From positions 1-64,000 of the forward strand of contig CAWCFT010000003.1 of NCBI GenBank assembly GCA_963794945.1: 64,000 nucleotides of DNA, given 5' to 3'. The notes below the pieces were generated by a model that was not told the origin of the DNA, did no database searches, and worked only from the letters and a program-made list of their open reading frames with translations. Within the stretch, counting starts at the first letter, position 1. Every line of letters begins with the position of its first letter. Shown here piece by piece: positions 28,413 to 62,424 of the stretch. Position numbers and translations under genes: made by a program. This DNA is from Endomicrobiales bacterium. Lineage in GTDB: Bacteria; Elusimicrobiota; Endomicrobiia; Endomicrobiales; CAWCFT01.

Positions 28413-28440
28413 TTGACATTTGTTAATAATTTGGTATAAT
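28413..28440 (+). promoter_or_regulatory. Sigma70 promoter of the chemosensory operon
   Basis: TTGACA, 16 bp, TATAAT with TG extended -10; AT-rich upstream region. Confidence 0.7.
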
Positions 28441-28697
28441 TTGTTTAATTGATGTAGCTATGGCGGGTTACTATATAATAATGCACAAACATCATAACAG
28501 TTTGTTGTCCGGTTTCGCGAACATTGCCTTCTATGTCCCGCATATATTTTCCGGGGTTGTTGGGTATTTAAAGGTACTGAAAATGTGGCGGCAGAAACAC
28601 TTTCCCGTGCGTAACACCGCAAACCAATTAAATACTGTTAGATTGTCGCCTACCAGAACAATTAATTCCGCAAATTATTCTTCACGGAGGCCAATAT

Positions 28698-29174
28698 ATG
28701 CCGACTATTTCGAACAATAACCAACAGCTTGTTGTATTTAGTCTGGCGAATGAAGAATACGGTGTTGCGATAACCCAGATCCAGGAGATAATACGCCAGC
28801 CGGATATAACAAGGATACCCGGCATGCCGGCCTTTATCGAGGGCGTGGTCAATTTGCGTGGAAAAATCATTCCAGTTATAGATCTAAGAAAAAGATTTTG
28901 CTTAGAACAAAAAGAAGAGAGTGACAAGACGCGCGTGGTGGTCGCGGATGCTGGCGGGCAAACCATAGGACTTGTTGTCGACAGCGTTTCGGAAGTTGTT
29001 AATCTGCCAACAGACCAGATAGACCCGATACCGCCATCTATAGCTTCGATAGATGCAGAATATCTGTCGGGTGTAGGCAAACTGGAAAAACGGATCGTTA
29101 TACTTCTTGACCTAGTGAAACTGCTTGGTGACCTAGAGAAAGTTGCGATAGATGAACTGGGAAAAAAACAGTGA
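28698..29174 (+). CDS. cheW: Chemotaxis adaptor CheW
   Basis: QLVVFSL..EEYG, GVVNLRGKIIPVIDL, GLVVDSVSEV. Confidence 0.97.
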   Translation: MPTISNNNQQLVVFSLANEEYGVAITQIQEIIRQPDITRIPGMPAFIEGVVNLRGKIIPVIDLRKRFCLEQKEESDKTRVVVADAGGQTIGLVVDSVSEVVNLPTDQIDPIPPSIASIDAEYLSGVGKLEKRIVILLDLVKLLGDLEKVAIDELGKKQ

Positions 29175-29214
29175 GACTGATAAAGTAATTTTTCGTAGTG
29201 TTTGAGAGTAAAAT

Positions 29215-30138
29215 ATGAGAATTTCGTTCGTTAGAATTTCTACAATAATCTTAAGCTGCATGATTTTCGGCTGTGTTGGCGCTTTTGCCGAAGGAAAAAA
29301 CATATCTATCATTCTTTCTTCTGATTTCGAACCATTTATTCAGTCAGCTAATGGGTTCAAACAATCAGTTGGAGAGAAGAATCTGGGCGTGAACATTACG
29401 GAGTCTAATTTGAAGGCAGCTGACCCTGCAGCAGTAACTTCGCAGGTTGCACAAACAAAACCTGTGATTATTTATGCTGTTGGAACCGATGCGATAAAAC
29501 TCGCAAAAGCTAAATTTAATGATACTCAAATCGTTTTTAGCATGGTACTAAACCCGGCGGAATTCATTGATGCCAATACAACCGGTGTTTCCTTGGCCCT
29601 GCCTCCGGAGCTGAAGATAAGGAACATGAAGAAGATATTGCCGTTCATAAAAAACATAGGCATAATTTATTCGGCAGGTTCCGACCCAGATTACAAAGAG
29701 CTGTCAGCGGAAGCTGACAACCAGGGTCTGAAAATAATCGGAAAAAAGATAAGCACCGATAGCGATTTTCCAGATGCCTTAGCAGCTCTCATCGGCCAGA
29801 TGGACTGTTTCATGATGGTCGCGGATTCGAAAGTGTATTTCAGCCAGTCAGTTAAATACCTTCTTCTTGACAGTTTAAAAAATAAGTTTCCGGTTATAGG
29901 GCTTTCTTCTTTTTATACAAAAGCGGGCGCACTTTTGTCTTTTGATTGCGACTATGAAGATATCGGTAAACAAGCTGGAGATATTGCGGTCAAAATTTTG
30001 AATGGCGAAAAGGCTGCGGAAATTAAAGCTCTGCGGCCACGCAAAATTAAATACAGCATAAATAGTATCGTTGCAGACAGAATGCAGATAAATATATCTG
30101 CTCAAGCCAAGAAAGACGCGTCAGAAATATTCAATTGA
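29215..30138 (+). CDS. Periplasmic solute-binding protein (ABC_sub_bind-like), copy 1
   Basis: Signal peptide; IVFSMV, TGVSL, IGIIYS, PVIGLSSFYTKAGAL, DIGKQAG. Confidence 0.85.
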   Translation: MRISFVRISTIILSCMIFGCVGAFAEGKNISIILSSDFEPFIQSANGFKQSVGEKNLGVNITESNLKAADPAAVTSQVAQTKPVIIYAVGTDAIKLAKAKFNDTQIVFSMVLNPAEFIDANTTGVSLALPPELKIRNMKKILPFIKNIGIIYSAGSDPDYKELSAEADNQGLKIIGKKISTDSDFPDALAALIGQMDCFMMVADSKVYFSQSVKYLLLDSLKNKFPVIGLSSFYTKAGALLSFDCDYEDIGKQAGDIAVKILNGEKAAEIKALRPRKIKYSINSIVADRMQINISAQAKKDASEIFN

Positions 30139-31135: not shown

Positions 31136-31161
31136 TCTATTTCCTGAAACGGAGGACAAAC

Positions 31162-33127
31162 ATGTTCTTGTTTTCATCGGGTAAATCGAGCATCAAGAAG
31201 CGGATAATCGCGAATTTTCTTGCGATTATGTTTTTTGCCATGCTTCTTATTGTCCTTATTACCGTTTCAAAAGTGCGCAGTATTTTGAACTCTGTCCAGC
31301 TTGATAACGCAAAAATCGTCACGACAAATCTTGCGATAGCGTGTAGCGAACCAATGATGTCAATAGCATACGCTGACCCCATGATGTCCGGTGAGAGCGA
31401 TAGGCTTACGAAGATCCTGCTGGGAGTCAAAAGCTCGGACAAGAATGTAGAGTATGTAATCCTTCTGGGCAATGACGGGAAATGCATAGCTTCTTCAAAG
31501 GAAGAACTTAAAGACAAATCCCTCAATAAGACCAATATAGAAATCAAAGCTTTCGCAGCGAAAGAATTCGAGGTCAACGAAAACACGGGGCAGCCGGATG
31601 TTTTTGAAACGGCGATCCCGGTTGTTGCTGCAAGCCAGAAGATGGGTGTTTTAAGGATCGGCTATACCACCAAGTACATCTCGGCCATGGCAAGAAATAT
31701 GGCGTTGATCATAGTTCTTGTTGTTATTGTCATCGTTGCTGCTGGAAGTATAATTTATAACTATATGATAGAAAAGGGTATTATAGAGCCGCTTGGCCAG
31801 GTCATGGTGGTCGCGCAAATGATAGCGGATGGCAACCTCTCGCAGAAACAGGTGCGAATAACCTCTAATGATGAGATTGGACGACTGGCCGATATATTCA
31901 ACAAAATGCTCGCGGGTCTGGGCGAGCTTGTTACGCGCGCTGAACTCATAGCTAACGGCATGATCGGTTCTGACACCATAGAAGAAAAGCTAGAAAAAGG
32001 CATAACTCTGTCGGATGCACTAGCTTCTTCTGCTCAGTCAAAAGGCGATCTTGCCGTAGCCTTTGATAAGATGCAAGGTGAACTGAGAAAACTTACAATA
32101 CAGGCTAGAAGGATATCAACTGACGATTTGAACAATCCGCTTCTTGAAGAAAGGATCGCAGGTGAACTTGGCGAAGCTTTTAATCAGATGACGTTCAATC
32201 TAAAAGAGCTGGCAAAAATAGCGGAACAAATATCCAACAACGACCTGAGCGCGAACGTGATGATCCATTCCGACAAAGACGTGCTCGGTAAAGCATTTTT
32301 TAAGATGGTAAGTAACCTTAAGAACCTTATAGGTGTTGTTGTGCAGCTTGCCAACACATCGCACAATTCAGCGAGTTCAATGGCCGAGTCAACAAAGCAG
32401 GTTAACCAGACGATGGACCAGGTACAGAACTCAATTCAGCAGATAGCCTCAGCAACGAACCAGGTCGCGAAGAGCACGCAGGAAATATCGGTGCTTATGC
32501 GCAATGCGAACAACGCAGTTAACACGGGAAGCGACAACATCAATAAAGTTATTGACAAATTCGGTTCCGTTCAGAACCACTATAGAGAATACTGGAATGT
32601 CGATAAACAAGCTTGAGCAGCGTTCTCAGGAGATATCTGAGATAGTGGGGCTTATAACTAAAATAGCCGACCAAACCAATCTCCTGGCCCTAAATGCAGC
32701 GATCGAGGCAGCTCGTGCCGGAGAGGCCGGTAGAGGCTTTGCGGTCGTCGCAGATGAAGTACGCAAGCTTGCCGAGTCTTCGGGCAACTCTGCGGAAAAA
32801 ATATCAAAAATAATAAAAGAGATACAATCGGACATGGTAGGCGTGGTTTCATCTTCCCAAAATTCGCTCGAAGAAGCCAAGATCGTTTTTGAGCTGACAA
32901 ACAACATGCAGGCCGGATATTCCGACATTGTGGAAGCGATAAAGGCGATGAACCAGCAGGTGGAGCAGATTGCCGCCATATCAGAAGAAACAGCGGCCTC
33001 AGCGGAAGAAATAACGGCCGGCGCGCAGGAACAAACGTTTGCAGTGACCGAGATCGCAGGTAATTCGAAAACTCTGGTTGACCAGGTTAATATGCTAAAG
33101 AACGAAGTAAACAAATTCAAACTTTGA
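31162..33127 (+). CDS. Methyl-accepting chemotaxis protein (frameshift near 32578)
   Basis: TM-periplasmic domain-TM, several HAMPs ([30 protein letters not shown]) and hairpin tip [38 protein letters not shown]. Confidence 0.95.
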
Positions 33128-34474: not shown

Positions 34475-34479
34475 CATTT

Positions 34480-36093
34480 ATGATAAAACTGCTCATCGTT
34501 GATGATTCGACTTTCATGCGTAAGGCATTCAAGCATATGGTGACCTCCGACCCCGAGATCGAGGTAATAGGTGAAGCCGGGGACGGGAAAGAGGCTATGG
34601 ATAAGGTACTTACGCTTAAGCCTGATGTTGTTACTATGGATCTCATAATGCCTGGAGTTGACGGGCTGTGGGCTCTAGAAGAGATAATGAAACAAAGACC
34701 GACCCCGGTAGTTATTGTAAGTTCTGTTGGGACGAAGACATCTGAGATCACAAAAGAAGCATTTGCGATGGGTGTTGTTGATGTATTGTGCAAGCCCGAC
34801 AACCCGCAAAATATCGCTGTTATCCAGAAAGAATTCATTGAAACAATAAAAGCTGCATCCAGGGTGAGCAGGATGCGGCTTCTTGAATATAAATCGACGG
34901 CCATCGCAAAAAAAACCTCATCAACATTGATGGCGCATCAGGTAGTAGTAATAGCCACTTCGGCCGGCGGCCCGACATCTCTATACGAAGTTATGCCTCG
35001 GTTCTCTAACAATTTCTACGGATCTGTCGTAATCGCCCAGCATATGCCGCCCCAATTCATGACCTCTTTTGTGGGGCATATCCAGACAATGACTCCTTTC
35101 CCTGTAAAGATATCTGAAAAGGGTGACCTGCTTTATTCAAGAAGAGTGCTTTTTTCACCCACGGATTCCACCCTGGAAGTGCACAGAACCAAAAAGGGTT
35201 GTATCGCCGATATGGTTGATTTTAAAGTGCGGCTGCAGCCGGATATAAACCACGTGATAATTTCCTGCGCCGAGGCTTTTAAATCCTCAACTGTTCTTGT
35301 AGTACTTTCCGGGTTGGGTAATGACGGAGTGAAGGGAGCGGAAGCGGTCAGGAGCTATGGCGGTAAGGTGATAGTAGAGGACGAATCAACAGCGAGCGTA
35401 TATTCAGGGATGCCTTCGAATGTTGTAAGGTCCGGAAATTATGACATCTTGTGCCCGTCGTACAAAATTGCCGAGGCTATTGAGAGCTGTCTGGCGAACA
35501 AACCGTTTAAGCAGGACAAGAAGGAGTTCATGGTCAAAGGGATAGTAATAAGGAACGCGTTGCAGTTCATTAAAAATAAATTTTCGCAGGAAACAGCGGA
35601 TAAAATAGTTTTAATGCTTACAGAGGAGAACCGTGTTCTTATAACAAGTAATCTGAAACAGTACAACTACTATTCAAGCACAATTTATTACGATCTATAT
35701 CAGAAGATCCAGAATACGCTTGGCGCGACTTCAACGGGGATACTTGAGGAATTGGGCGAAGAGAACGCACGCGAGTGTATAGAATCATACAAGACTGCTC
35801 TGGCACTTTCGTCTCTGTCAGATTTCGACACGTTCTTGAAAGGTCTTTATAAGATTATATTTCCCGGTATATCAAGCGATCACCTGGAAATAAAAACAGA
35901 AATGAAATCAGCGTCCTACATTCTTAGGAGCGGCGGCTATAACGAAGAGAACATAAAAATATCAGAAAAGACCGTAAAAGGCTGGCTAAACTATATCACA
36001 AAATACTTAAAACTAAATTTGGTCTCGAGCTCCTGCACGGGGGCGAAAGATGAGAACGGTATCAAGATCACATGCGAATTTAACTGGAAATGA
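34480..36093 (+). CDS. cheB: Chemotaxis methylesterase CheB with a ~190-aa extra C-terminal domain
   Basis: REC domain; catalytic triad ATSAGGP, QHMP, GNDG; additional domain starting MVKGIVIR. Confidence 0.92.
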   Translation: MIKLLIVDDSTFMRKAFKHMVTSDPEIEVIGEAGDGKEAMDKVLTLKPDVVTMDLIMPGVDGLWALEEIMKQRPTPVVIVSSVGTKTSEITKEAFAMGVVDVLCKPDNPQNIAVIQKEFIETIKAASRVSRMRLLEYKSTAIAKKTSSTLMAHQVVVIATSAGGPTSLYEVMPRFSNNFYGSVVIAQHMPPQFMTSFVGHIQTMTPFPVKISEKGDLLYSRRVLFSPTDSTLEVHRTKKGCIADMVDFKVRLQPDINHVIISCAEAFKSSTVLVVLSGLGNDGVKGAEAVRSYGGKVIVEDESTASVYSGMPSNVVRSGNYDILCPSYKIAEAIESCLANKPFKQDKKEFMVKGIVIRNALQFIKNKFSQETADKIVLMLTEENRVLITSNLKQYNYYSSTIYYDLYQKIQNTLGATSTGILEELGEENARECIESYKTALALSSLSDFDTFLKGLYKIIFPGISSDHLEIKTEMKSASYILRSGGYNEENIKISEKTVKGWLNYITKYLKLNLVSSSCTGAKDENGIKITCEFNWK

Positions 36094-36140: not shown

Positions 36141-37937
36141 ATGGATGAGATGGATCTGTCTCAATTTAAAGAAGTCTTCGTTTCTGAATCTAAAGAGCAT
36201 CTCGTGGCCCTTAATGCCGCTCTTATAGAACTAGAAAAGAGGCCTTCGAATAAAGAAGTCTTGAACGACATTTTCAGGGTGGCCCACACGCTCAAGGGGA
36301 TGTCAGCGACGATGGGTTACGATAAATTAACCAATCTCGCACATCATATGGAAGATGTTCTGGACAGCTTGCGCAAGGGCGAAGCACAGGCCAAGGGCAA
36401 CATTGTAGATGTGATCTTTGAATGTTTTGACAAGATTGAAAGCCTGATAGAGGAAATAGAGACCGGTGTCGAATCTAAAGCTGACATAGACGGGCTCGTG
36501 GCTAGATTAGAGGGACTTATAAGCGAAGAAGAAGTTAAGCCGCAGGAGCCAAAAGCTCAGCCAGAGCCGCAAACTGTCCCGGCACAGACACAGACGACGC
36601 AACCTCAACCACAATCGCTTGCCAAGGAACAAATACAAACGCCGACACCTCAGCCTGTCCCTGAGCAAAAACAAACTCAGCCTCAGTCTGCGGCGCAGGA
36701 ATCGCAGGCGATGGCAAAAGCGCCCGAAGAGGAAGCCAAAAGCACCGATGAAATCGAAGCGACAGCAGGCGCGGCCGGCAAGAAATCTAAGACCAGCATC
36801 AGAATTAATATTTCCCACCTTGATAAAATGATGAACTTAGTTGGGGAAATGGTTATAAGTAAGTCTCAGCTTGAGCAGATAGCTGTTGTTCACGGCATCG
36901 AAGAACTTAAGGAAACACTCCAGCAGCTTGATAGAATAGCGGTTGAGCTGCAGGAAGCTGTGTTGAAAACCCGCATGGTTCCGTTATCGCAGATATTCGA
37001 CAGGTATCCGCGCATGGCAAGGGACCTCGCGCTTAAGCTCGGCAAAGAAGTAGAGTTTGAGATAATCGGAGCGGACATTGAAATAGACCGCATGCTGATT
37101 GAAGAGATCAATGAGCCTCTTGTGCATCTTCTGCGAAACGCGCTTGATCACGGCATAGAAACTCCGGAAAAACGTCTTGAGGCCGGAAAACCTCGGAAGG
37201 GGAAGGTGGTCCTTTCAGCGAGGAGAGAACGCGGGTATATATCCATAAATGTTTCAGACGATGGCAAGGGTCTCGATCCGGAGCAAATAAGACGAAAAAG
37301 CGTTGAAAAAGGAATATTAACCGCTGAAGAAGCCAAGGCGACAAGTGATGAAGATTCATTTCTTGTGATTTGCGACCCCAGGTTTACAACCGCCGAAAAG
37401 ATCACTGATATTTCCGGGCGCGGCGTTGGAATGGACGTGGTAAAAAATGCGATAGAATCTTTCGCGGGCAGGCTGGTAATTAATTCTAAAAAAGGCGAAG
37501 GCTCATCGTTTACTGTAAATCTTCCTTTAAGCATCGCCATAATTACATCTTTGCTTGTGAAAGTAAAAACAGAGATCTATGCCATACCGCTTAATAATAT
37601 TACAGAAGTCGTCCCATTCTCTCAAAACGACGTAAAAAGCATAGAAAAACGCGAGGTAATTGTGCTCAGGGACGAAGTATTGCCGCTCGTTTGGCTTGAA
37701 AAACTGCTCGGGGTAAGCGCTCACCCTGAAACTAAGCAGAGCGCAAACAGATATATACTCAGGGTGGAGATCGGCAACAAGTCGGTCGGGCTTGTAGTAG
37801 ATAATTTTATAGGTAGAAAAGAAATAGTGATAAAATCTTTGAGCGGTCTCATTAAGAAAGCCAAAGGTTTTTCAGGAGCAACGATTCTTGGCGATGGTTC
37901 TGTTGTTTTAATACTTGACGTAAATTCGTTGTTTTAA
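36141..37937 (+). CDS. cheA: Chemotaxis histidine kinase CheA (P2 replaced by a Q/P/E-rich linker)
   Basis: Hpt FRVAHTLKGMS, LVHLLRNALDHGIE, DDGKG, SGRGVGMDVVK, C-terminal CheW-like domain. Confidence 0.97.
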   Translation: MDEMDLSQFKEVFVSESKEHLVALNAALIELEKRPSNKEVLNDIFRVAHTLKGMSATMGYDKLTNLAHHMEDVLDSLRKGEAQAKGNIVDVIFECFDKIESLIEEIETGVESKADIDGLVARLEGLISEEEVKPQEPKAQPEPQTVPAQTQTTQPQPQSLAKEQIQTPTPQPVPEQKQTQPQSAAQESQAMAKAPEEEAKSTDEIEATAGAAGKKSKTSIRINISHLDKMMNLVGEMVISKSQLEQIAVVHGIEELKETLQQLDRIAVELQEAVLKTRMVPLSQIFDRYPRMARDLALKLGKEVEFEIIGADIEIDRMLIEEINEPLVHLLRNALDHGIETPEKRLEAGKPRKGKVVLSARRERGYISINVSDDGKGLDPEQIRRKSVEKGILTAEEAKATSDEDSFLVICDPRFTTAEKITDISGRGVGMDVVKNAIESFAGRLVINSKKGEGSSFTVNLPLSIAIITSLLVKVKTEIYAIPLNNITEVVPFSQNDVKSIEKREVIVLRDEVLPLVWLEKLLGVSAHPETKQSANRYILRVEIGNKSVGLVVDNFIGRKEIVIKSLSGLIKKAKGFSGATILGDGSVVLILDVNSLF

Positions 37938-37969: not shown

Positions 37970-38737
37970 ATGATGATAAAGCGTGTATTGCTTGTTGACG
38001 ATGATGAAGGTGTTCTGGCTCTTCTCTCGGCTACATTGGAAAGAGCGGGTTACGGCACATCCGGGGTGGAGAACGGGAAGCAGGCCCTAAACAAGCTTAG
38101 TGAAGAATTTTTTCCGGTCATAATTTCGGATATCATGATGCCGGATATGGATGGCTTGACGTTACTTAAACGGGTCAAAGAAATAAATCCTGACATTCAG
38201 GTAATAATGGTAACCGCACATGCGACCGTAGATGTTGCGATTACGGCACTGAGAAATTCGGCCACAAGCTTTTTAAAAAAGCCGTTCGATCCGGACGACC
38301 TGGTTTCGCAGACAGGGCAGGCATTTGAAAAATACAGGCTTCTTGAAGATAATAGAAAACTTATAGCTGAGCTCAGGTACGCAAAAGAATATAATGAGAA
38401 GATAATAGAGAACCTTGTGTATACGTTGATCGTTATCGATGAACAAGGTAAAATAGTGAAGATAAACAGGGCGCTGGAAGATATGCTTGGCTACTCGCAA
38501 AAAGATGTAGCCGGCGCGCCTCTCTCAAAGATATTTGCGGATGAACTCAAGAATACAAGCTGGGAAGAACTCGCTAAAGAAAAAAAGCTTGAAGACTTTC
38601 CGGTTGAATTCATTGCCAGAGACGGAAACAAGATAAAAGCTCTATTCACAGGCACTATAATAAAGGGACCTGATGGAAATGTGGCGGGTTTTATCGGGAC
38701 CACAAAAAACATCAAAGATAAGGCAGACTTAAAATGA
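37970..38737 (+). CDS. Response regulator with C-terminal PAS domain and no output domain
   Basis: REC (LLVDDD, SDIMMP, KKP), coiled coil, PAS (IDEQGKIVKINRA..MLGYS). Confidence 0.88.
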   Translation: MMIKRVLLVDDDEGVLALLSATLERAGYGTSGVENGKQALNKLSEEFFPVIISDIMMPDMDGLTLLKRVKEINPDIQVIMVTAHATVDVAITALRNSATSFLKKPFDPDDLVSQTGQAFEKYRLLEDNRKLIAELRYAKEYNEKIIENLVYTLIVIDEQGKIVKINRALEDMLGYSQKDVAGAPLSKIFADELKNTSWEELAKEKKLEDFPVEFIARDGNKIKALFTGTIIKGPDGNVAGFIGTTKNIKDKADLK

Positions 38738-44550: not shown

Positions 44551-44660
44551 GCTGTCTGAAAGTTAACGACAATAGCAAACTCCGGGAAACCGGAGGACGC
44601 AAAGCCACGGGGCTAAAGATAGGGGGCTATCAACGCCAGCCGGGTTACCGAAAAGACAGC
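44551..44660 (+). ncRNA. GEMM-I (c-di-GMP-I family) riboswitch aptamer 1, A20 variant (candidate 3',3'-cGAMP sensor)
   Basis: CGACAATAGCAAAC-TCCGG GAAA CCGGA-GGACGCAAAGCC...CTAAA...CAGCCGGGTTACCGAA matches the GEMM-I consensus; closing helix GCTGTCT/AGACAGC; discriminator base at 44574 is A. Confidence 0.93.
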
Positions 44661-44811: not shown

Positions 44812-44914
44812 AGTTCCGATAAAGGCAAACTCCGGGAAACCGGAGGACGCAAAGCCACGGGCCTAAAAGGCGGAGTTGATCAGCCGCTTCAAGGTAGCCG
44901 GGTTACCGAAGACT
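44812..44914 (+). ncRNA. c-di-GMP-I (GEMM-I) riboswitch aptamer 2, G20 variant
   Basis: CGATAAAGGCAAAC-TCCGG GAAA CCGGA-GGACGCAAAGCCACGGGCCTAAA...GGTAGCCGGGTTACCGAA; discriminator base at 44824 is G. Confidence 0.95.
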
Positions 44915-45021: not shown

Positions 45022-45059
45022 AACCGGATTGTCCGTGGCGACGATTCGGTTTTTATTTT
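45022..45059 (+). terminator. Intrinsic terminator, expression platform of riboswitch 2
   Basis: 12-bp stem AACCGGATTGTC / GACGATTCGGTT (two G-U pairs), 6-nt loop, then a T tract, 15 nt before the first start codon. Confidence 0.85.
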
Positions 45060-45073
45060 GCGAGGGTAAAAAG

Positions 45074-52000: not shown

Positions 52001-54653
52001 AAAAATGAAAAAAGCGCTGAGATTAAATCAAAAGAAGAAACAATGGTGTCGCTTGTAAAATCACTGCAGGAGAACAAGGTCATTTATGATAGAGAGCTCG
52101 AGGCGCTCAAATCCAGTCTTGCCGCGGAACTGGAGCCGGTATCAAAGCGCAGGCAGGAGTTAAAAACGGATTTTGAACGGGCCAGAAAAGAGGCTGAAGA
52201 GAAGCTTGTCGCGGCCGCTAAAAGAATAGAATCTCTTAAAGCCGAGCAGGTAGCTTTGACCGCGGAATTTGAACGAAGACACGCTGAGTCTTCCGCGAAG
52301 ATGTCCTCCGCTAAAGCTGATTTTGACGGCCAGGTCAAAACACTGCTCGAACAGAAAGCTGGATATGAAAAAGAGGCAGCGGAAACTATAGCCGCCAAGG
52401 AATCTGAGATAAGCGCGCTAGAAAGCGAGGCCAACCAAAAGAAACTCGCTTTCGAAAAGCAAAAAGGGGGTTTGCAGTCACAGGGGCACTCGCTGATAGA
52501 AAAGGTTAAAGAAGAGATCTCGTCACTGGAAAAGGAAATGTCGCGGCTGGAAAAAGAATACCCGCAGGTCCTGCTGGAGCGTGAGAAAGAAATATCGCTG
52601 CTGACCTCCAGAATAGAGCAAAGATCTATAGAGAACAAGGACAAGTTGGACCTCGCAGAAAAAAGTACTGAAAATTATCAAAAGCGAGCTGAACGCCGTA
52701 TCACACAGCTTAAGGGGCAAATAAAGGAAGCGCAGGAGCACCACAAAAAAGAACTGGAATCGATCGAGGCCAGGCTCTCCAATATTCACTCGGATATAGC
52801 AAAGAAGGAGAATTCATACCAGGAAGAATTCTTAAGAGAAGGAAAAATATTTGCCGAGCAAAAATACGTTCTCGAGAAACAGAAAGCAGAATTTGGCGAA
52901 AAACTCAGGGACCTGCAGTTGTATTCAAGGGAGCAGTTGAGGCAAAAAGAGAAAGAAATACTTATCCTCCAGAGTGATCTGGCTGAAAAAGAAAAAGCCT
53001 GGGAAGAAAGTTGGAAGCAAAAGGAGCAGGAGCTGGCGATAGAAAAAAATTCGCTTTTGCAAGAGCTCGAGAGTCTTGACGCAAAGCTGAAAGACGAAGA
53101 GGAAACGGTCAAAAAAAGAATAAATGAAAAAGAACGTGAAATACAGTCTCTGGAAAATACATACTATACAAAACTTGAAAACATGTCGGCCGAGATGTCT
53201 TCAAAAAAGAAAGTGTGGGAAGACACTAATTTAGGCCTTAAGAACCAGGCTGAACAGCTAAAAAATAGCCTGGCCTCGCTAGAAAACAGTTGGGAAGAAA
53301 CAAAGGCACAAAAAGAGAAAGAGTTGTCCGTTCTTAAATCCAATCTTGAATTTTGGGAATTACGTTCAAAGAACGAAGAAGAAAAAAGACTGGCCGCGTG
53401 GGAAGAAGAAAGATCCGGCCTTGAGAGCAAAGTTAAAGACGCAGAAAATAAGCTGGCCGCGCTGAAAAAAGAATATTCTGCGAAGAACGAGGAGAAGGAA
53501 GCCGCGTTAAATGCCTTAAGGGTCCAGGGTGAAGAGAACGAAAAGGAAAAACTGAATGAACTAAAAAAGATTGAGACAGACTATACAGCGGCACAGAACT
53601 CACTTGCGCTGGAGATATCAGCCTGGGAAAAGAAACTCAAAGAAGAAACTCTCAGGACGGAGAAGGAAAAGAAAGAGATAGAGCGTGAGCTTGAAAAGCT
53701 GAAACTTGAAAGCGCCCTAAAAGAGAACGCAGCAATGTTCTGAGCAGCAAAAGAACGAAAGGAAATGGCGTAAACTCCAGAGAGACCTTGAAGAACAGCT
53801 GATAGACTATGAACGCCAATTTGCCGACGAAAAAGAGAGCTTAAAGAGTAAGCTTAACATGAAGGCAGAAGAGATCAGTACGCTTAAAGTAAGAATGTCG
53901 CTTAGAGAAGAAAGACGCCAGTCAGAGATAAAGCACCGCCAGGAAGAGACACAAAAGATAATATCCGGCCTGGAATCAGAGCTCAAAGTGCTAGAAGATA
54001 AATACGGTAATAATATGGGCGCCTTAAATACAAGCCTGGGAAAATCAAGAAAAGAACTTGAAATGTTGAAGCAAGAAGCTATGGAAAAAGAAGAGAAGTG
54101 GGAAAAAGAAAACGAAAGCAGGGAAAATGCCGCGTCGAGCGCATATGCTTTGATAAATAAAGATCTTGAGGATGTGGAAAACGAATTGAGAAAGGAGAGC
54201 GAAAGGCTTGAGAGGATGCTGGATATAAAGCAGAAACAAATCGCCAATTTGACAGCACAGATGCAGTCTAAAGAAGCCGGCCTTATAACTGAAAGGGATT
54301 ATTCTCAGATAATACTGCAGGGGTTGCAGAAAAAAGCCGGCGATCTTCAGGGAGTACTGAACAAGCTCCAAAGGAATGGCAAAGAAAACGAAAAAGAAGG
54401 TCTTGGGCGCGTTTTCGAAGAAGCTATCGAGCATTATAACAGTGGTAATTACGAGAAAGCGAAAGAAAAACTGGGGCAAATATTGAAATCAAATCCGGAG
54501 TTCGCCGGGGCTTATCAATATCTTGCGCTATGCAGCTGGAACCTGGGAGAAAAAGAAGAGTCTTTGAAACTTGCCAGGAAAGCGTTCGAGCTTGAACCCC
54601 ACAATGAAGAATTGAAACTCTGGATAGAATATATAGAAAAAGAAAGTAAATAA
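49082..54653 (+). CDS. Giant coiled-coil protein (~1855 aa) with C-terminal TPRs (frameshift near 53738)
   Basis: E/K/L/Q-rich with almost no Pro or Gly; ORFs 49082-53743 and 53859-54653 are contiguous in composition; TPR pair at the C-terminus; RBS GGAGG. Confidence 0.85.
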
Positions 54654-54678: not shown

Positions 54679-57600
54679 ATGGCTGACGACAAAAAACCAA
54701 AAATTCCGCCTCTTCCGCCGCAGAGGCCGCCAATGCCGAAACCGGCGGGTGGAGCGACTATACCTAAAGCGGGCCTGCCACCCCAGGCGCCAAGGCCGCA
54801 AGGGGTGCCGGTTAAACCTGTGATGCCTGCGATGAAACCTCCGGTAGCCGAACAAGCTCCTGCGAAGTACGCGCAGGGAAATCTTTCTCCAGCATCTAGT
54901 GAAGTCGACGAGATAAGAAAACAAATGGAATCTCAGATCATGGGCCTGCAGTATCAGCTGCAAGAAGAAAAAGAAAAACTCCTTCTTCAGACAGTCCGCG
55001 CGAAAGAAGAAGAAGCTATGGCGGCGAAAGTCGAAGAATCTCTTAAAGATATACAAGACAGGTTGCGCCGCGAGAAACGCGAGCAGGAACTGCAGGACTC
55101 CTTAGCGAAGTCCGAGCTCCAGGTAAAGGAACTCGAGCAAAGGGTCAGTGCGGAACGCCAAACGTGGGTTGAAACTTTGAAATCGCAGGTCGGTCAGAGG
55201 GAGAGCCAGGATAAGGAGCTCGAGCGCGATTTTGAGTTGAAGCTTAAGGAACTTGAGCGGCGCTGGCACGAAGAGAAGCTTGGCTGGTCTCAGGCTCTAA
55301 GGGGTAAAGACGAAGAGGTGGCTAGGCTCAAAAGGGAAGCTGAAGCGGCCATTACCGCTGAAAAAGGCAATTCCGAAAAACGCATCTCACAGCTGGAAAC
55401 AGAAAGGGACGCTTTCAGAAGGGAGATCAAGGAGATCGTTGACGTACGTGACCAGGAACGCGCGATGACCGCCTCAAAACTCGAAGCTCGCGACAAAGAG
55501 TTCCTATCGCTCAAGGCTCAGCAGGCGATGGTAGTTACCCAGTTGCGCCAGGGAAAAGAAAAAGAGGACCAACTTAGGGCGCTTCTGGAAAGAATGCGCG
55601 CCGAGAAAAACGGCCTCATCACCCAGCTGGACGCGAAAGACAAAGAATACTTTATGCTAAAAACGCAGTTCGCTCTCTATCAGAACACGGGCAAAAACTG
55701 AGCAGGAAAAGCTGATGAAAGAGATGCTGCTCTATAAAGAACAAATGCAGAAAGACCGGGATAACTGGGAAGTGAATATAAAAACTAAAGAGAACGAGCT
55801 GAGGATAATTTCCGATAACGCTAAGGATCGCGAGAACTCTTTAAAACAGTTGCTTGAGAAAAAAGAGATTGAACATACGTCATTTGTCAGGGAATACGAG
55901 GACAAGCTGAGGGCTCAGGAAGCTGCGTTCAGTCAGGTTGTCGAGAAGAAAGAAAGCGAAGCGTCTGCAGCGGTCAGGAAGGCTGAAGAGAAGATCATTG
56001 CCCGGGAGATCGAGTTTAAACAAGCGCTTGAAAAAAAGGACCTCGAGAAGGTTTTGCAAATAAGAGAGATGGAAGAGAAGATGCGTTCCCAGGAAGCTGT
56101 TTTCAGGCAGGCCGCTGAAAAGAAAGAAATTGAATTATCGGCTTTTGCCAGAACAGGCTGAGGAAAAACTTAAAGCCAGAGAGATTGAGCTGAGGCACTT
56201 GATAGAACAGAAGGATGCTGATATAAAAGAAGCGGTTAAAGACAATGTGGTAAAGATAACGGCCCTCGAGCAAGCTCACGGTCAGCAGATCGCTCAGAAA
56301 GACCATGAATTCAGAAATCAGCAATTGCAGTGGATCGAACGTATTCAGGTGAAAGAAAAAGAGATCAACGCGGCCGCAGAAAAGGAGAACACGTTAAAGG
56401 TGAGGATCGCACAGGTAGAACAAGTTGTACACCAGCTGGAAGAAAAACTTAAAAATGAGACCGAGTCACTTATCGCTGAGCGGGCCCACAATGAACAGAA
56501 CGAGAGGGAGTTCAATGCCGCCATCGTGCGAAAAGAAAATGAGTTCAAAGAAGCAGTTTCGAAGCAGGAAGAAAAATTACGCGCCATTGGAAAAGAGCTC
56601 GCCGAGTCTCTTGCCCACTCGCAGATACTTAACCTCGAAATAGCCAAAAGAGAGCAGCAACTCATTCAATTCAAGTCTGATATAGAACGGAGCGCACAGT
56701 CGGCTGCCTTGCTAGCAAAAGAGAACGAGAGCAAATCAATAGAGCTAACAGAAGCCTTGTCTCGCGCTCAAGGCCTAAGCCTTGAAGTGGCGATGAAAGG
56801 TCAGCAGCTGATTCAGTTCAAAACGGAGCTCGATAGGAGCGAAAAAACAATTGAGGCGCTCAAGAGCGAAAACGAAATAAAAATAAAGGAATTAGCCGAT
56901 GCCGCGGCGCGTGCTCAGGGCCTCGGCCTAGAACTCGCCAAGAAAGAGCATGAGCTCGTTCAGGCAAAGATCGATATAGATAGGGCTTCACAGGCGTTCC
57001 TCGTCATGGAGAAGGAAAAAGAAGGCAGGATGAAAGAGGTGTCCGAGCTTATCGAAAAGAGCAGAGAACTCAGCTCTCGCCTTATTGAACAAGAACGTAA
57101 CAGTAGAGAGCTCTCAGAGCGCATAAGAGATAAGTCGGAAGAGGCCGCGCGTGTGACAGAAATTTTAGCGCGGACGGAGAATGAGCTTAAGGTGGCACGC
57201 TCGGGCTTCCTAACAGAACTTTCAAAAAAAGAGAATGAAATAATCTCTTTCAGGGAGAAAGACAGCGACTCAAGGGTCAAGATATCATCCTTTGAGCAAA
57301 GGATTAGAGAACTTGAGGAAAAACTTGAAAATGGGGAACAGGCCATTAAGGGAAAAGATGATATGCTGCGCGATAAGGAGACAGAACTTCTTATACAGCA
57401 GGAAAAGACGGAGCAGGCAAAAAAGGAGCTCAATGATAGACTTTTAAAAGAGCAGGAAAAATTCACACTCGCGGTCGATCAACTTAAAAAAGAGTCGGGT
57501 GATAAGTTATTACAGGAAGAATCTAAATTGAAGGCGCAAACGGATCTCTTAAAAGAAGAGGCCAGGAATGCCGTAAATTTGAAAGAGCTTGAAATAAGGG

Positions 57601-58676
57601 ACCTGAGGAATGAAAAAGAGAATCTGAAGACAGAAGCCGCGAAGATGTCGATGGAGATAGTTTCCAAGGAAAAGGATATATATGAATTAAAGAACAGCCT
57701 GCTCTCCAAGGAAAGAGAAATAACCCATGAAGTGGAGCGCAGGGAGTCTGTGTTTGCTGGCGAAAGGAACGCGATGTCGGAAAAAATACGGATGCTTGAA
57801 GATGCCCTGAGAGAGGCTCAGAACAATTCAGGGGAAGGGGCTAAGCGCCTGGAACAAGAACTCAAGGAAAAAGTAGAGGAGTTTACCGCAGAAAAGAGAA
57901 ATAAAGACGAAGCGATAACCGCCCTAAAAGCGGAGAATAATGCCTGGCGCCTGGAAAAGGAAAAGCTGCTCGAGCTTAAGGCCCAGTCTGAAGACATGAA
58001 CCAGGCGGAGCTTATGAGCGTGCAGAGGAAACTCTGGGAAAACAAAGAGAAGTCCAACGAGCAGCTCAAGGAAATGGAGCGGGAGATCACCGCACTCAGA
58101 GATGCTCAGAAAGACGTCGAAGAAAAGGTAAGAACGGAGCTACTGAATAAATACAGCGCGAAGATAATGGAGCTGGAAAAAGAGAATGAGACGCTGTCAA
58201 AAGATGTTTCTACAGAGGTGCGTACGCTCAGGAGCTCGCTGCAGGAGGAACTTAAGAAAAAAGAGGAGCAGCTAAGCACCGAACGCTCTAGCTGGGAAAT
58301 GAAGCTTAAGGAGAAAGAAGACATTATCGCCGACATGGCGAAAAAAATGGAGAGTGCCGGTGAGAAACAAAAGGAAAAGGACGTTATGTCCACCGTGCAG
58401 GCGATAAAGAACGCCGTAGAGACAAGAACTGTGGGCTCTGACGCTTCTATAAACGACAAAACGTTGGTCATAGAAAGGGCTAAAGACCTATTTGATAAAA
58501 CCGCGGTAATAGAGCCTCGTTCGAAAAGCGATGACACTATCCCGGCTGTTAAGGGCATAGACCTGCCGTCTAGCGATAAAAGGTCGCTTTCCGGTCTGAT
58601 CTGCGGTATATGGAAGAGCATCAACGAGCCCGTCATAGAAATTAACGTTAAAAAAAATGAAGATAGAAAAGGATAA
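54679..58676 (+). CDS. Giant coiled-coil protein (~1330 aa) with Pro-rich N-terminus (frameshifts near 55685 and 56148)
   Basis: Three abutting ORFs (54679-55701, 55715-56161, 56130-58676) of continuous coiled-coil character; RBS AGGAGG at the first. Confidence 0.8.
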
Positions 58677-59190
58677 TTTAGCTATGGGAACAAAAACGGA
58701 ATTTGAATGGGAAAAATATGAGAAGCGATTTGCTGAGCTGGAAAATCGTATTTCCTGCCCTTCGCGCCTAAAACCATCGGCCTCTAATAATAAATCAAAT
58801 GATATAACGGACTGTTTTGGGAAACACGATAGCCAAAAACACGAAGAAACAGTTGTTTTGCCTGCTGTGCGGGACAGCTCCTCTTATATGCTCGCAGAAG
58901 AGGTCAGATTTTTGAAGGCGGAGATAGCGCAGCTAGCGCAGATTAAAGAAGAGTCACTAAAACTCAAATATGACATAGCAAACATAGCAAGCCTTAAAGA
59001 TTCCGAAATAGCCAGACTTTTCGCAAGGAATAGACTGCTTGAAGAAGAAAATAACGGGCTTAAACTGAAGATCAGTAGATACAATTTTGACACTGCGGAA
59101 AGCTTCCGTGAAAGAGAACACAGGCACCATAAGAAAGAAGGACTGCTTGGATGGCTGAAGAAGCCTATGTTAGTTATTGAACCGGAATAG
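58657..59190 (+). CDS. Short coiled-coil protein of unknown function
   Basis: 177-aa ORF overlapping the upstream stop; heptad-rich centre; amphipathic tail GLLGWLKKP. Confidence 0.65.
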   Translation: MKIEKDNLAMGTKTEFEWEKYEKRFAELENRISCPSRLKPSASNNKSNDITDCFGKHDSQKHEETVVLPAVRDSSSYMLAEEVRFLKAEIAQLAQIKEESLKLKYDIANIASLKDSEIARLFARNRLLEEENNGLKLKISRYNFDTAESFREREHRHHKKEGLLGWLKKPMLVIEPE

Positions 59191-59194
59191 GATC

Positions 59195-60315
59195 ATGGGG
59201 CATATAAAGATATACATTTCGTTTTCGTTGCTCTGCGCGGTGACTTTGTTCTGCGTGCGCGAGCAACATGTCGCGCTCAAAAAAGATGCGTCCAATCCCG
59301 ACCAGCCTGCCGGGAATGGGCAATATTAAACCCGCAAAAACAGCACCTATATCTGCAACGCCGGCCGAGCAGAAAGGGGCGCCAGAAAAGGAAAAGCCAC
59401 AAGAGGTGAAAACTCCTGAGGCCGCCGAACCGGCAGTTAAGGAAGAAGAAACAGAACACCTTAGGAAGCACAATGCCGGGCGCAGGTGTTGAAAAATCAA
59501 CAAAAAGTGAAATAGCTCCGGAACCGGCGATAAAAATCAACGCAAGCGCAAAAGAAGAGCAGAAGGCGCCAAGCTTAAATTTGCTGCCGCTCAAAATTAT
59601 TTTTAGTAATTCTGGGAACGCAAAGTCACTGGATGACAATGAATCTCACCCGAGCGTAACCGTCAAGCAGCCTGTGCCTGAAGTCAAGCAGGAACAGACT
59701 AAGCCGCCAGAACCTGTTATAAAAGAAGAACAAAAGCCTGTACCAGCGCCCATTGAAGAAAAACCGCAGGAAACAGAAGAAACAATAAATACTCCGCCTC
59801 CTGTTCCAGTGCCAGAGCAAAAGCCGTTAGTTCAAGAAGAAGAGAAACAGGCGCCGGCCGCTCCGGTAAAAGAAACACAGGAAAATGTGGCCCAGCCTGA
59901 GCCGGTAAATAGCGCCGAGCCCGAAGTTAAAGAAAAAGAGGAACAGAAAAGCGTTATTGAGAAGAAGGCGGAGCCTGTCGAAGTGGAGCCGGCCCCCACG
60001 GCACCGGCAAAGGTGCCCGCACCGGTTCCTGCACTCATCCCGGCTCCCGTGAAGAGTGCGGCCAGCGTTGCAGGCGTTAAAATTGACAAACAGGCAAAGA
60101 AAAAATTATTTCTAGAGCATAAAAAGTCGCAACAGGCAAAAGCCGAAAACCAGCGCCAGGCCAGGATGCATACGGTTGTCGTTGGGGACAACCTGCAGTC
60201 GCTGGCCGAAAAATATTATGGTGATAAATCCATGTGGGTAAAATTATACGACGCAAATAAAGATAAGTTAGAGAAAGGCACGCTGGAAGCAGGCCAAACA
60301 ATTTTGATCCCATAA
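59195..60315 (+). CDS. LysM peptidoglycan-binding lipoprotein with a long Pro/Glu/Lys-rich linker (frameshifts near 59240 and 59465)
   Basis: Hydrophobic leader from ATG 59195, lipobox-like SAC|ASN, low-complexity linker, C-terminal LysM HTVVVGDNLQSLAEKYYGDKSMWVKLYDAN...GQTILIP. Confidence 0.8.
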
Positions 60316-60365
60316 ATTTCAGAACCGTTTTACATATGGGCCCATTAAACCGGGCGGAGGCTATA

Positions 60366-62424
60366 ATGGACGAATTTAAAGACATCGATACCGAACTCAT
60401 GAGGCTCAAGGAAGAGCTCAACTCAAAACATGAAGATTTCAGTCACGTGAAATTCCCATCGTCCGGTGATTACTGGCGTTCGCGCCTTGATGAAGAAAGG
60501 GTGCTCTGGGATAAAAAAGTTGTGCTTGGCAGCGAAGAGAGAAAGGCGCTCGAGAAGAAGCTAAACGAGCAGGAAGAGCTCCTTTCGCGCTACAACCAGA
60601 GCGTCAGGGAAATGGAAAGAAAGATAGAGAACGATACAAAACTCTGGGAGGACCGCCTAAGGATCAAAGAAGCCGACATAATGATCGAAAAAAGCCGGCT
60701 ACAAAGCGAAGCCAGGGTCAAAGAGATCGAGCTCGAAAGGCAGAGCCTCATGAAACACGTAACCGAGCTCTCTCTTAAAATATCAGAACTGCGCGACGAC
60801 CAGGCAGCAGAGATAGAAATACTGAACATGCATGCGAAGCAAGACGCCGACCTTTATGAACAAAAACTCAAGGTTGCTGCGGCCGAATCCGACGCGCTGA
60901 AGAACAGGATGTCCGATGCGGAGAGCGTACTGAAAGCCCGTATATCGGAACTTGAAAAGCTTAAAGAAGAGTACAGGGTAAGGCTTGAGGCAGCGGAAAA
61001 GAAGGCCGAAGAGGAAGCACGAGCAAGGTTCGCAAGCGATGAAGCGGCGTCAAAAACAAGAGCTAAGTCGGAAGAAGACAAGATCCAGATAAGAAAATCA
61101 TTTGAAACCACAACTATTAAATTCGCCGGTATCATCAATAAAGATGTGGGTGCCCTGGCCGGCCTTTCCGGCATTGCCGCCGATCACGAGCTAAAAAAAG
61201 AGACACTACTTATCATTAAAGGTTTGACCGGAAAACTGCAGTCGGAGTTGGGCGGGTTCGAGAAAGAACTTAACTTAAAATTCGATGTGGACGACAATTT
61301 CAAAGCCGCTATCATCATGAGTGAAGATGAAGCCGCCTACTGGGAAGCGGCCCTCTCCGGCACGCGCGTGACGATGGAAAAACTCGGCGTAAAATCGAAT
61401 GTCAAAAAGTCGATTCCCGCTTTGAAACCGTGCGTTTGTGTCGTTTCGTTAAAAAAAATCAAGGCGGCGAGAACGATCAAAGCCAGGTGGCCATTCGTCC
61501 CGGTTATAATATATGGAGAACTCCCCGAGAAACGCAAGGCAAAACTTGAAAAGGGCGGTTTCATAACGGTATCTTCATACGGAACAGCGGACGATATGTA
61601 CCAGTCGCTTTGCGACGCTGCAAAGAACAGCGCTGCCCAGCCGGACTACTGGGGCAAAGTAAAAATTAAAAGCAGGTGGGTCCTGCCTACTATGTACGCG
61701 GCCGCGACTATGTTGCTTGCCGGCCGGCTTCATTTACATGAACAACCCTGCCCTGCTCGAAAGGTTCGGCAGGGTGGCATCCTACAGCGTGCCTTACAGC
61801 CAGCCTTCCAATATAACATTTGACGGCGCATACCTCTGGGGCTGCGATTGGTACGGCCAGAGCATATACAAACATGACACAACCCAGGGGCTGAAGCTCC
61901 TTAGGATATTCTGTTTTCCCGGCAAGCATTTTACGGCTATAACCTGGGCCGGCGGCTACCTCTGGAGCGCGGACGCTTGGGAAAATAAGATATACAAACA
62001 CAACACGGACGATAACTTCACCGTGCTTGAGACCTTCTCTACGCCCGGCACCGCAATAAGCGGCCTCGCTTTCGACGGGAAAAACCTATGGTCGTGCGAT
62101 TCCTCGGCTGGCATGATATACCGCCACACAATCGACGCCAACCTTACCGTTGAGGACGCTTTCGAGAGCCCCGGCGCGAGCCCGTCAGGGTTGTTCTTCG
62201 ATGGGAAAAATCTCTGGAGCGTCGATTCAAAGATAAACAGGATATTCCGCCACAAGATGGATGCTACCCTCAGCGTTGAGAAGTCGTTCATCCCGCCGCT
62301 TTACGACCAGAAGAATTACAACCTCAGCGGTATCGCCATAAAGAACAACAAGTTCTACGTGTGTTCAGAAAAGCTTGGAAAAGTATTTAGTTTTCCCGCG
62401 GAGAAAATGGAAGAGGTAAAGTGA
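60366..62424 (+). CDS. Coiled-coil-degenerate REC-TM-beta-propeller protein (frameshift near 61720)
   Basis: Coiled coil, pseudo-receiver (KPCVCVVS...IKARWPFVPVIIY), TM, and a propeller paralogous to 43166-44386 (YSVPYSQPS vs YTIPYSNPI; FDGKNLW; RHKMD). Confidence 0.8.

Follow-up and report, generated by a model that had tools for sequence, protein, structure and literature searches.

The window analysed here is the whole stretch of 64,000 nucleotides (nt) from contig CAWCFT010000003.1 of an Endomicrobiales bacterium, and the subject of this analysis is a 34-kb block of co-oriented genes within it, in which a single gene encodes parts of the flagellar rotor proteins FliF and FliG. The source is a metagenome-assembled genome (G000) of the phylum Elusimicrobiota, with 2.9 Mb in 19 contigs, a completeness of 85.9%, and a contamination of 5.9%. 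Open reading frames (ORFs) were listed for the window from 26 to 64 kb, and the 29 plus-strand ORFs were scanned against Pfam and NCBIfam. A first-pass annotation made from the letters alone had placed in this block a chemotaxis (Che) operon, riboswitches, a protein resembling the C-terminal domain (CTD) of type IX secretion system (T9SS) cargo, a PorV-like outer membrane barrel, a FliF-FliG fusion, coiled coils, a LysM protein and a propeller protein; each is present, on the + strand and in its proposed place. The fusion gene and the genes beside it, referred to as the module below, begin with the following three, where TPR stands for tetratricopeptide repeat, TM for transmembrane helix, RBM for ring-building motif and aa for amino acids.

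45029..45460, + strand, small exported protein with a hydrophobic N-terminus and little beyond a T9SS type-A CTD of FlgD_ig fold (PF13860 42.8 bits; TIGR04183 26.1 bits, cut-off 23)
45473..47104, + strand, PorV/PorQ-like 14-strand outer membrane barrel with a C-terminal (periplasmic) TPR domain (NF033709 140.3 bits, cut-off 90)
47163..48969, + strand, FliF(RBM3/collar)-TM-FliG(M,C)-TPR fusion of about 601 aa with one extra base near 48471 (Pfam; intact homologue P0002)

The fusion gene is carried by two ORFs in the window. Pfam places FliF_C, FliG_M and FliG_C in 47049-48479, and the rest of FliG_C with the TPR domain in the +1 frame at 48472-48969. The break was read at 48460-48480, where ...ASSE is followed by one extra base and then by VLNKYF..., and the intact homologue P0002, of 601 aa and 89% identity, is colinear across it. 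A total of 128 homologues of the fusion protein were collected, about 600 aa long when intact and with identities of 33-89%, and their sources, where named, are Elusimicrobia/Elusimicrobiota, Endomicrobia/Endomicrobiales, one 'Candidatus Omnitrophica' and one plain 'bacterium'. In the family alignment, the protein opens with a hydrophobic segment at the N-terminus, after which come a periplasmic domain (about 170 aa), a TM helix that is conserved, a linker rich in glycine, FliG_M and FliG_C, and lastly another linker and the TPR domain.

The FliG domains clear the curated cut-offs, with 51-56 bits for PF14841 and 90 bits for PF01706 in the intact homologue. When the FliG_MC part of the orthologue in the closest relative (loci L012 and L099, which are one and the same record) was compared with Thermotoga maritima FliG (1lkv), an E value of 4.8e-43 was obtained, and the family profile against the same structure yielded 5e-61. 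The EHPQ motif of FliG reads EPPQ in the fusion, and the arginine of EHPQR is retained. On the torque helix, the equivalents of D288 and D289 are EE according to the alignment with T. maritima FliG, the mapping to Escherichia coli numbering being our own, and E454 of the KEEMEY stretch is invariant across 111 sequences. The available part of PMC12505986 gives E. coli R281, D288 and D289 as the torque-helix residues that contact MotA. A FliG_N match is also present in the fusion; it overlaps FliG_M and is weaker.

The periplasmic domain spans the whole YscJ_FliF_C profile (PF08345) with 27.3 bits, against a cut-off of 23.8. Compared by hhalign with the true FliF of flagellated Elusimicrobiota, it aligns at the start of RBM3 with a probability of 88% and an E value of 3e-6. 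The AlphaFold model of the fusion protein has a mean predicted local distance difference test score (pLDDT) of 82.4 and shows a periplasmic alpha-beta-beta-alpha-beta domain with two long strands. With this model, Foldseek returned FliG at 1.7e-12 and the FliF RBM3/collar of the Salmonella MS-ring at 8.8e-5 (6sd3_Q) and 5.2e-4 (6sd1_A), with target TM-scores of 0.43-0.48. As to RBM1 and RBM2, no match to PF01514 at E<=0.01 was obtained in the fusion protein. The genome has three such modules, paralogous to one another, given that FliG_C is found at three loci: the one in the window, and one each on contigs C4 and C16, where a CTD protein, a PorV-like barrel with TPR and a FliF_C/FliG protein are encoded.

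The first-pass annotation had noted that no other flagellar gene lies in view, and the window indeed holds no flagellin, hook, rod, FlhA, FliM/N or MotA/B gene. Nor was a complete flagellar set found elsewhere. FlhA (PF00771) has 0 matches in the source genome, at its completeness of 85.9%, with the control matched in 4 genomes, and flagellin (PF00669), FliMN_C (PF01052) and the rod/hook motif (PF00460) likewise have 0 matches each there, with controls matched each time. A sample of 201 Elusimicrobiota genomes was then profile-searched for FliG_C, FlhA, MotB_plug, CheA and CheC. FliG_C occurs in 72 of the 201 genomes and in 53 of the 77 genera, the frames being 480-700 aa long in most cases, and FlhA in 5 genomes, all of them among these 72, which leaves 67 FliG_C genomes without FlhA. 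Each of the five FlhA genomes has a separate canonical FliF, which is found in these only, and in four of them (G064, G170, G104 and G062) it lies beside a FliG_C frame of canonical length (335-356 aa).

It could be argued that the fusion protein is a regular flagellar rotor, or what remains of one undergoing decay, since its FliG part, and the MotA proteins described below, are close to flagellar ones and the window copy is frameshifted. This is very improbable: the genome has no FlhA, flagellin, FliM/N or rod/hook match, the great majority of FliG_C genomes lack FlhA as well, and the flagellated members keep a canonical FliF of their own, mostly beside a canonical-length FliG_C. Moreover, the homologues are intact at about 600 aa and share 33-89% identity, and the frameshift is one of many assembly breaks that the closest relative lacks.

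The stator genes lie beyond the window. Four genes of the MotA/ExbB family are present in the source genome, on contigs C4, C12 and C15 only; two belong to ExbB-ExbD pairs, and two are MotA genes accompanied by a MotB with plug and OmpA-like domains. The MotA-MotB pairs (PF01618, PF20560, PF13677, PF00691) are on C12 and C4, neither being adjacent to a fusion gene. At C12:71002-84562 (L092), the order is MotA, MotB, OmpA, coiled coil, response regulator, GAF histidine kinase, response regulator, Kelch/CTD protein (1202 aa), response regulator, PorV-TPR, TPR and HEAT. The coiled-coil protein of this cluster is homologous to the N-terminus of the giant coiled coil of the window, and the cluster is a stator-plus-barrel module that lacks the fusion gene and may serve as the stator source for the module of the window.

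Fusion-encoding loci were retrieved from species genomes of the Genome Taxonomy Database (GTDB) with flanks of 10 kb; of 113 such loci, 80 were kept as related. Their titles are Elusimicrobia/Elusimicrobiota, Endomicrobia/Endomicrobiales or plain 'bacterium', with one exception titled Ignavibacteria. Using jackhmmer with the MotA and MotB of the source genome as queries, both genes were found downstream of the fusion gene and on the same strand in 44 of the 80 loci, with gaps of 431-8038 nt. Among the 36 loci without downstream MotAB, 17 have less than 5.1 kb of downstream sequence, and the rest are mostly of the Endomicrobiia type with giant coiled-coil genes. In the phylum sample, MotB_plug occurs in 78 of 201 genomes, and a cross-tabulation by hand assigns it to 71 of the 72 genomes with FliG_C (66 of the 67 without FlhA) and to 7 of the 129 others. 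The MotA of the operon in G054, a genome of another family, matches Clostridium sporogenes MotA (6ysf) with an E value of 6e-51 and carries K where E. coli has R90 and E where it has E98, as these residues are named in the accessible portion of PMC12505986. Since 44 of the 80 related loci combine MotAB and the fusion gene in one operon, and this genome encodes MotAB on other contigs, the machine probably has a stator.

The gene order is kept in relatives. Immediately upstream of the fusion gene, scoring by script found a PorV-TPR gene in 58 of the 71 loci with enough upstream sequence, a number that rises to 62 when four ORF-calling artefacts are counted; in the nine real exceptions, MotAB come immediately after the fusion gene. 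The next gene downstream encodes a coiled coil in 62 of 72 loci, and a CTD-bearing gene stands immediately before the barrel gene in 36 of 54. In other classes, the frames at the CTD position are 1817 to 2697 aa long and probably cut by the 10-kb flank; of six such giant frames scanned, three matched at a FlgD_ig/CTD end only, one had a weak GEVED domain only, and two matched nothing.

From its components and their conserved order, we conclude with moderate confidence that the block specifies an envelope-spanning machine which is not a flagellum but derives from the core of the flagellar motor. The first-pass annotation had also read the block as an envelope machine; that reading is supported, both of the conditions that it had named as refuting having turned out in its favour, and it is amended by stators of flagellar type, in more than half of the related loci and on other contigs here.

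The outer membrane side of the module resembles T9SS components. The true start of the CTD protein is likely ATG 45074. The predicted structure of the barrel (pLDDT 84.6) has 14 strands and 11 helices, and its top Foldseek matches are PorV chains of T9SS complexes (8gl6_F, E 1.3e-13; 6h3i_F, E 2.8e-12), with FadL behind. Throughout the genome, 22 CTD matches were obtained, and there are about 20 pairs in which a CTD gene, its product often no longer than 100-170 aa, precedes a PorV/PorQ-like barrel gene of its own (e.g., C2:27774-29390, C12:48787-51092, C15:41467-42843, C15:173036-174549 and C6:16310-19192). A SprA/Sov-like protein of 1754 aa is encoded at C5:39154-44418 (L107), with 139.6 bits for TIGR04189, below the cut-off of 200, and 38.7 bits for PF14349, above the cut-off of 27. 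In the source genome, the profile search for GldK gave 0 matches, PorU was matched only by CTD-like stretches over its last 100-230 positions, all under the cut-off, and GldM gave 0 matches in a search that is uninformative, given that its control matched nowhere. Because of this T9SS context, namely the CTDs, the PorV pairs and the SprA-like protein, the module may also have a role in secretion or anchoring.

In its strongest form, such a role would make the module a T9SS-like energy transducer, in which a MotAB-driven ring replaces GldLM/PorLM-PorKN and powers the export or anchoring of CTD proteins through a SprA-like translocon, with PorV-like barrels as shuttles. The abundance of CTD/PorV pairs, the SprA/Sov-like protein, the missing GldK, the PorU matches confined to CTD-like ends, and the structural likeness of the barrel to PorV are in its favour. 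Nevertheless, the fusion gene is joined to only 3 of the roughly 20 pairs, and the SprA-like gene lies outside the operon and scores under its family cut-off, with the silent GldM control adding nothing. In addition, a Che operon with CheR/CheB adaptation inside the G054 operon, presented below, fits taxis better than secretion. We consider the energy transducer rather unlikely.

Upstream of the CTD gene are two predicted aptamers for cyclic di-GMP (c-di-GMP), which sit in the 640-nt gap after the Che operon. They were searched with Rfam covariance models, and their scores were compared with the Rfam gathering scores.

44564..44652, + strand, c-di-GMP-I aptamer (RF01051, 83.9 bits, gathering score 35)
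44815..44911, + strand, c-di-GMP-I-GGC variant aptamer, tandem copy (RF03167, 72.1 bits, gathering score 59)
45022..45051, + strand, terminator-like hairpin with T-run and a 12-pair stem, likely the expression platform, by consensus match only

The hairpin stands directly before ATG 45074. Aptamers of the c-di-GMP-I class were found upstream in 11 of the 14 related loci examined (6 of 7 close ones and 5 of 7 distant ones).

The riboswitches are preceded by a complete Che operon, which spans 28698-44386 on the + strand in the Pfam scan.

28698..29174, + strand, CheW (PF01584, 148 bits)
29215-30138 and 30218-31135, + strand, two periplasmic ABC-type substrate-binding proteins (ABC_sub_bind) between CheW and the receptor (PF04392, 99 and 117 bits)
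31162..33127, + strand, methyl-accepting chemotaxis protein (MCP) in two ORFs due to a +1 break near 32504-32616, with HAMP in the first and MCPsignal in the second
33200-34060, + strand, CheR (PF01739, 176 bits)
34103-34474, + strand, CheY (PF00072, 98 bits)
34480..36093, + strand, CheB fused to an H-NOX (HNOB) domain (REC and CheB_methylest; PF07700, 31.6 bits)
36141..37937, + strand, CheA (Hpt, H-kinase_dim, HATPase_c and CheW domains)
37970..38737, + strand, REC-PAS response regulator (Pfam), with the same gene after CheA in G054
38734..40689, + strand, FtsA/PilM-like actin-fold protein of 651 aa with one hydrophobic helix at 396-414 (TIGR01174 ftsA 144.5 bits, under its cut-off of 175.85; TM scan)
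40969-41589 and 41597-42232, + strand, CheC and CheC (PF04509)
42250-42747, + strand, CheD (PF03975)
42757-43122, + strand, CheY (PF00072)
43166..44386, + strand, REC with a TM helix (164-182) and, C-terminally, a homologue of the propeller encoded by the last operon gene (PF00072; TM scan; tblastn)

CheA, CheW, MCP, CheR, CheB, CheY, CheC and CheD are all above the Pfam cut-offs. In NCBIfam, the actin-like protein scores as FtsA (144.5 bits) above PilM (44.5 bits), and of the 11 other CheA regions fetched, 7 (L108, L109, L111, L113-L115 and G054) have a match to it next to CheA. The propeller ORF at 61717-62424 and the closest relative's orthologue of the REC-TM gene at 43166-44386 are 29% identical in tblastn (E 2e-36). 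The joining of a haem-NO-binding H-NOX domain to a CheB methylesterase at 34480-36093 is an observation of its own, and the Che operons of G065, G133 and G181 hold CheB ORFs of similar length (542-544 aa).

The first-pass annotation suggested that the machine could be the output of this Che system, which holds for a minority only. Of the 80 related loci, a single one, that of the closest relative (L012), has Che genes next to the module; the adjacency seen in genome G151 is the same record and not independent. The second link is provided by G054, where the minus strand encodes an NHL/TPR protein, a 173-aa ORF, PorV-TPR, the fusion protein, a 778-aa coiled coil, a Che operon, MotA and MotB. Its Che genes run CheY-CheW-CheW-CheR-CheY-CheB-CheA-REC/PAS-FtsA-like-CheC-CheD-CheY-MCP. 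The Che gene order of the window, including the REC-PAS and FtsA-like genes, is set there inside a rotor-stator operon, between the coiled-coil gene and MotAB. Elsewhere, an FtsA-containing Che operon like that of the window is unlinked to the module (G065, G119, G007, G152, G133 and G181).

CheA was found in 17 of the 201 phylum genomes, 14 of these being among the 72 with FliG_C. Given that only 14 of 72 FliG_C genomes have CheA, Che control cannot be general, and the candidate claim that it is a general feature of the module was rejected on the phylum counts. We also rejected a CheC-like protein as a universal switch partner in the manner of FliM, since the CheC family is present in 16 of 201 genomes and follows CheA rather than FliG_C. 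Judged by gene order, the Che link is genuine but lineage-limited, and the two arrangements are good evidence, not proof, that the Che pathway acts on the machine where both exist.

It is also possible, though we think it doubtful, that the Che operon drives type IV pili (twitching) or another output, its position next to the module being coincidental. The rarity of CheA would fit this, as would the Che operons that lie away from the fusion gene in G065, G119, G075, G007, G133 and G152. The genome encodes pilin-like N_methyl proteins and a PilB-like ATPase, the operon itself has the PilM/FtsA-like gene, and twitching is proposed in the available text of Uzun et al. (bioRxiv 10.1101/2022.07.08.499144). 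Coincidence is harder to reconcile with the whole Che operon lying inside the PorV-TPR/fusion/coiled-coil...MotA-MotB operon of G054, a member of another family. The last Che gene (REC-TM-propeller) and the last module gene have a common C-terminal domain, and the actin-like gene scores far higher as FtsA than as PilM.

Two side observations concern these subjects. Two small pilin-like proteins with N-methylation motifs are encoded at 20373-20924 and 21739-22236, upstream of parA/parB. A second kind of Che cluster lies on the minus strand of L112 (G007:C23:70000-89999) at 6123-19706 and encodes a ParA-like protein, a double CheW, a multihaem cytochrome with a T9SS CTD, PorV, a porin, an MCP, CheA-REC, CheB and CheR-TPR.

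Downstream of the fusion gene, the block continues with the following genes.

49082..54653, + strand, giant coiled coil ending in TPR, about 1850 aa, split near 53740 (single ORF in L012; no signal peptide or TM in the TM scan)
54679..58676, + strand, second coiled coil, about 1330 aa, with proline-rich N-terminus, split twice (single 1087-aa ORF in the relative, covering p340+p148+p848)
58657..59190, + strand, 177-aa coiled-coil ORF (weak match to a 238-aa ORF of the relative)
59200..60315, + strand, LysM protein with a broken 5' part (LysM ORF 59473-60315; PF01476 24.5 bits; three-frame reading)
60336..62424, + strand, coiled coil with TM and beta-propeller-like domain, about 690 aa, split near 61720 (weak SGL/Vgb_lyase matches)

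No Pfam or NCBIfam family was matched by the coiled-coil proteins, and their ESM Atlas matches are crescentin-like or unnamed coiled-coil clusters at 0.86-0.91, which is a lead at best. In the closest relative, the giant is one 1851-aa gene covering window ORFs Giant1553 and TPR264. Its LysM protein (L099:7759-8784) has a signal peptide, a TM helix at 17-35 and the lipobox 'LVLGC', and window ORFs p495+p235 correspond to one 683-aa ORF with a TM helix at 434-452 ahead of the propeller, the propeller-like end in the window being 61717-62424. The earlier names 'LysM lipoprotein' and 'TM-propeller' are thus borne out for the intact genes of the relative, yet not for the window ORFs as they stand, for which the TM scan found neither signal peptide nor TM.

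At least eight frame breaks occur in the 34 kb, with 31162-33127, 48471, 53740, 55700-56130, 59100-59473 and 61720 among the sites. The genes that follow the riboswitches are unbroken in the closest relative, whose MCP is not within the sequence fetched. The single-base breaks are most likely artefacts. Three public DNA sequencing runs of a single study match with small shares, and no RNA run does; the contigs of those runs, aligned to 45000-49200, leave the frameshift site near 48471 uncovered. Outside the block, a radical SAM/SPASM domain is embedded in a giant TPR protein at 5308-12487 (ORFs of 1724 and 665 aa), in a stretch with unusually strong GC skew (0.5-0.6) and AT skew.

For the proposed envelope machine, we infer a ring, its rotation, the coupling across the envelope and an output from homology and gene order only. 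The fusion protein would assemble into a ring similar to the MS-ring, and MotAB stators, encoded here on C12 and C4, would turn this ring at its FliG face. Through the TPR domain of the barrel, this ring would be linked to the barrel itself and to its CTD cargo at the cell surface, and the TPR tail of the fusion protein could carry a cytoplasmic scaffold or track made of the coiled-coil proteins. The tandem riboswitches would gate expression of the module by c-di-GMP, and phosphorylated CheY from the adjacent operon may modulate the ring in Che-bearing lineages such as this one.

Several findings weigh against this interpretation. On the torque helix, the equivalent of E. coli R281 is lost (N or G), and that of R297 is S or T. 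The FliF assignment is weaker in distant members, PF08345 being unmatched in P0083 and in the G054 protein. Neither FliM/FliN nor a general CheC-like partner was found, CheA was not seen in 58 of the 72 FliG_C genomes, and type IV pili are a rival output of the Che pathway, to which the FtsA/PilM-like gene could equally point. The genome itself is only 86% complete, with 5.9% contamination and numerous assembly breaks. Finally, the window operon is without MotAB, and in this bacterial order the cluster has a LysM lipoprotein and a coiled-coil/TM/propeller protein at its end instead; therefore, the local ring might work stator-free.

Some of these findings would suit a static trans-envelope scaffold or tether that does not rotate in this lineage, either for upkeep of the envelope as by Tol-Pal or to anchor a cytoskeletal coiled coil to the outer membrane. 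Over about 10 kb downstream, no MotAB genes follow in the window operon or in its closest relatives, and a LysM lipoprotein and giant coiled coils are encoded instead; the residue at R281 is also lost. However, the stator face is otherwise retained, with EE at D288/D289 and E454 invariant in 111 sequences, and a flagellum-less genome has kept two MotAB pairs, of which the C12 pair is beside a homologous coiled coil and a CTD/PorV-TPR pair. A static scaffold is improbable.

As for what a rotating machine would do, it may move or actuate surface proteins, as in gliding-like surface motility or regulated adhesion, which we favour tentatively among the outputs; energising the export or anchoring of CTD proteins is ranked second. 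A bolder and still more doubtful proposal is that free-living Elusimicrobiota move, or actuate their surface, by a third kind of chemotactic engine, in which a flagellum-independent FliF-FliG ring, turned by MotAB and under the control of its own Che pathway and of c-di-GMP, drives giant CTD-anchored surface proteins through a PorV-like barrel on a cytoplasmic coiled-coil track. Should a phylogeny place the rotor-stator pair beyond the flagellar clades, the pair could represent a sister or a remnant of a proto-motor that preceded the type III secretion system, and not a cut-down flagellum.

The available text of Uzun et al. reports that free-living flagellum-less Elusimicrobiota hold numerous motAB, flbD and fliG homologues, whose role it calls unclear, and it terms the fliG and motAB of magnetotactic Elusimicrobiota enigmatic. 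Rotor genes without filament genes are given for 11% of non-motile species in the accessible part of a further study (ISME J, PMC12199754). Our literature search, which did not cover supplements, found no description of the fusion, the operon or the Che link.

FliG and MotAB, usually seen as sensible only in flagella, persist in 67 of the 201 phylum genomes without an export gate. They are fused there and appear rewired to outer membrane parts of T9SS type, to giant coiled coils and to a c-di-GMP switch, and some lineages add a complete Che operon. If the proposed reading is true, this would be a new class of ion-driven envelope machine and a candidate answer to how non-flagellated, Che-bearing Elusimicrobiota move, the magnetotactic ones included. 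It would also make a natural minimal rotor available for structural work, and the role of a rotor-stator pair before or without the type III export apparatus would become directly testable.

In comparison with known systems, the pairing of a CTD protein with a barrel has precedents in the PorQ-PorZ and PorP/SprF-type-B-CTD anchor pairs of the T9SS, as described in the available part of Gorasia et al. 2022 (PMC9143113). As in those pairs, the CTD protein is encoded beside a dedicated outer membrane barrel that presumably holds it, and about 20 such pairs exist here; they differ from the PorP/SprF-type pairs of that source in having PorV/PorQ-type barrels and type-A-like CTDs, and three of them are extended by a FliF-FliG gene.

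The wider T9SS/gliding machinery of Bacteroidota (GldLM or PorLM motor, PorKN ring, SprA, SprB adhesin) resembles the module in its PorV-family barrel and type-A CTD cargo, in having a SprA-like protein in the genome, and in an ion-driven motor of 5:2 type that presumably acts across the envelope. It differs in that the motor here would be MotAB on FliG and not GldLM, the barrel bears TPR, and every cargo gene is paired with a barrel gene of its own; in addition, GldK gave no match here, and PorU was matched only by its CTD end.

The gliding complex Agl-Glt of Myxococcus comprises an ion-driven motor, an envelope complex with outer membrane barrels and TPR proteins, cytoplasmic coiled-coil partners and Che-like control by Frz. 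The module may be likened to it by analogy only, through the motor, the envelope complex, the coiled coils and the Che-like control; the Agl motor is TolQR-like, without the FliG rotor of the module.

The closest comparison is with the flagellar motor core (FliF MS-ring, FliG and MotA5B2). The two are alike in the RBM3/collar fold, the TM helix, the M and C domains of FliG, the E-x-P-Q...R motif, the acidic pair on the torque helix and MotA/MotB of flagellar type, the latter being in the same operon in most of the phylum. They are unlike in that rotor parts form one polypeptide here, with no RBM1/2, FliG_N, export gate, rod, hook, filament or FliM/N, and in that a TPR tail is added and the partners are a PorV-like barrel, CTD proteins and giant coiled coils. 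Fusions of FliF to FliG are functional in Salmonella. Engineered or deposited FliF-FliG fusion proteins (PDB 8z4d/8z4g) likewise have both proteins in one chain, and our family profile matches their FliG part. Those chains join full-length FliF to full-length FliG and were made for structure work on the real flagellar motor, whereas the fusion of the module is natural, cut down, and encoded in flagellum-less genomes.

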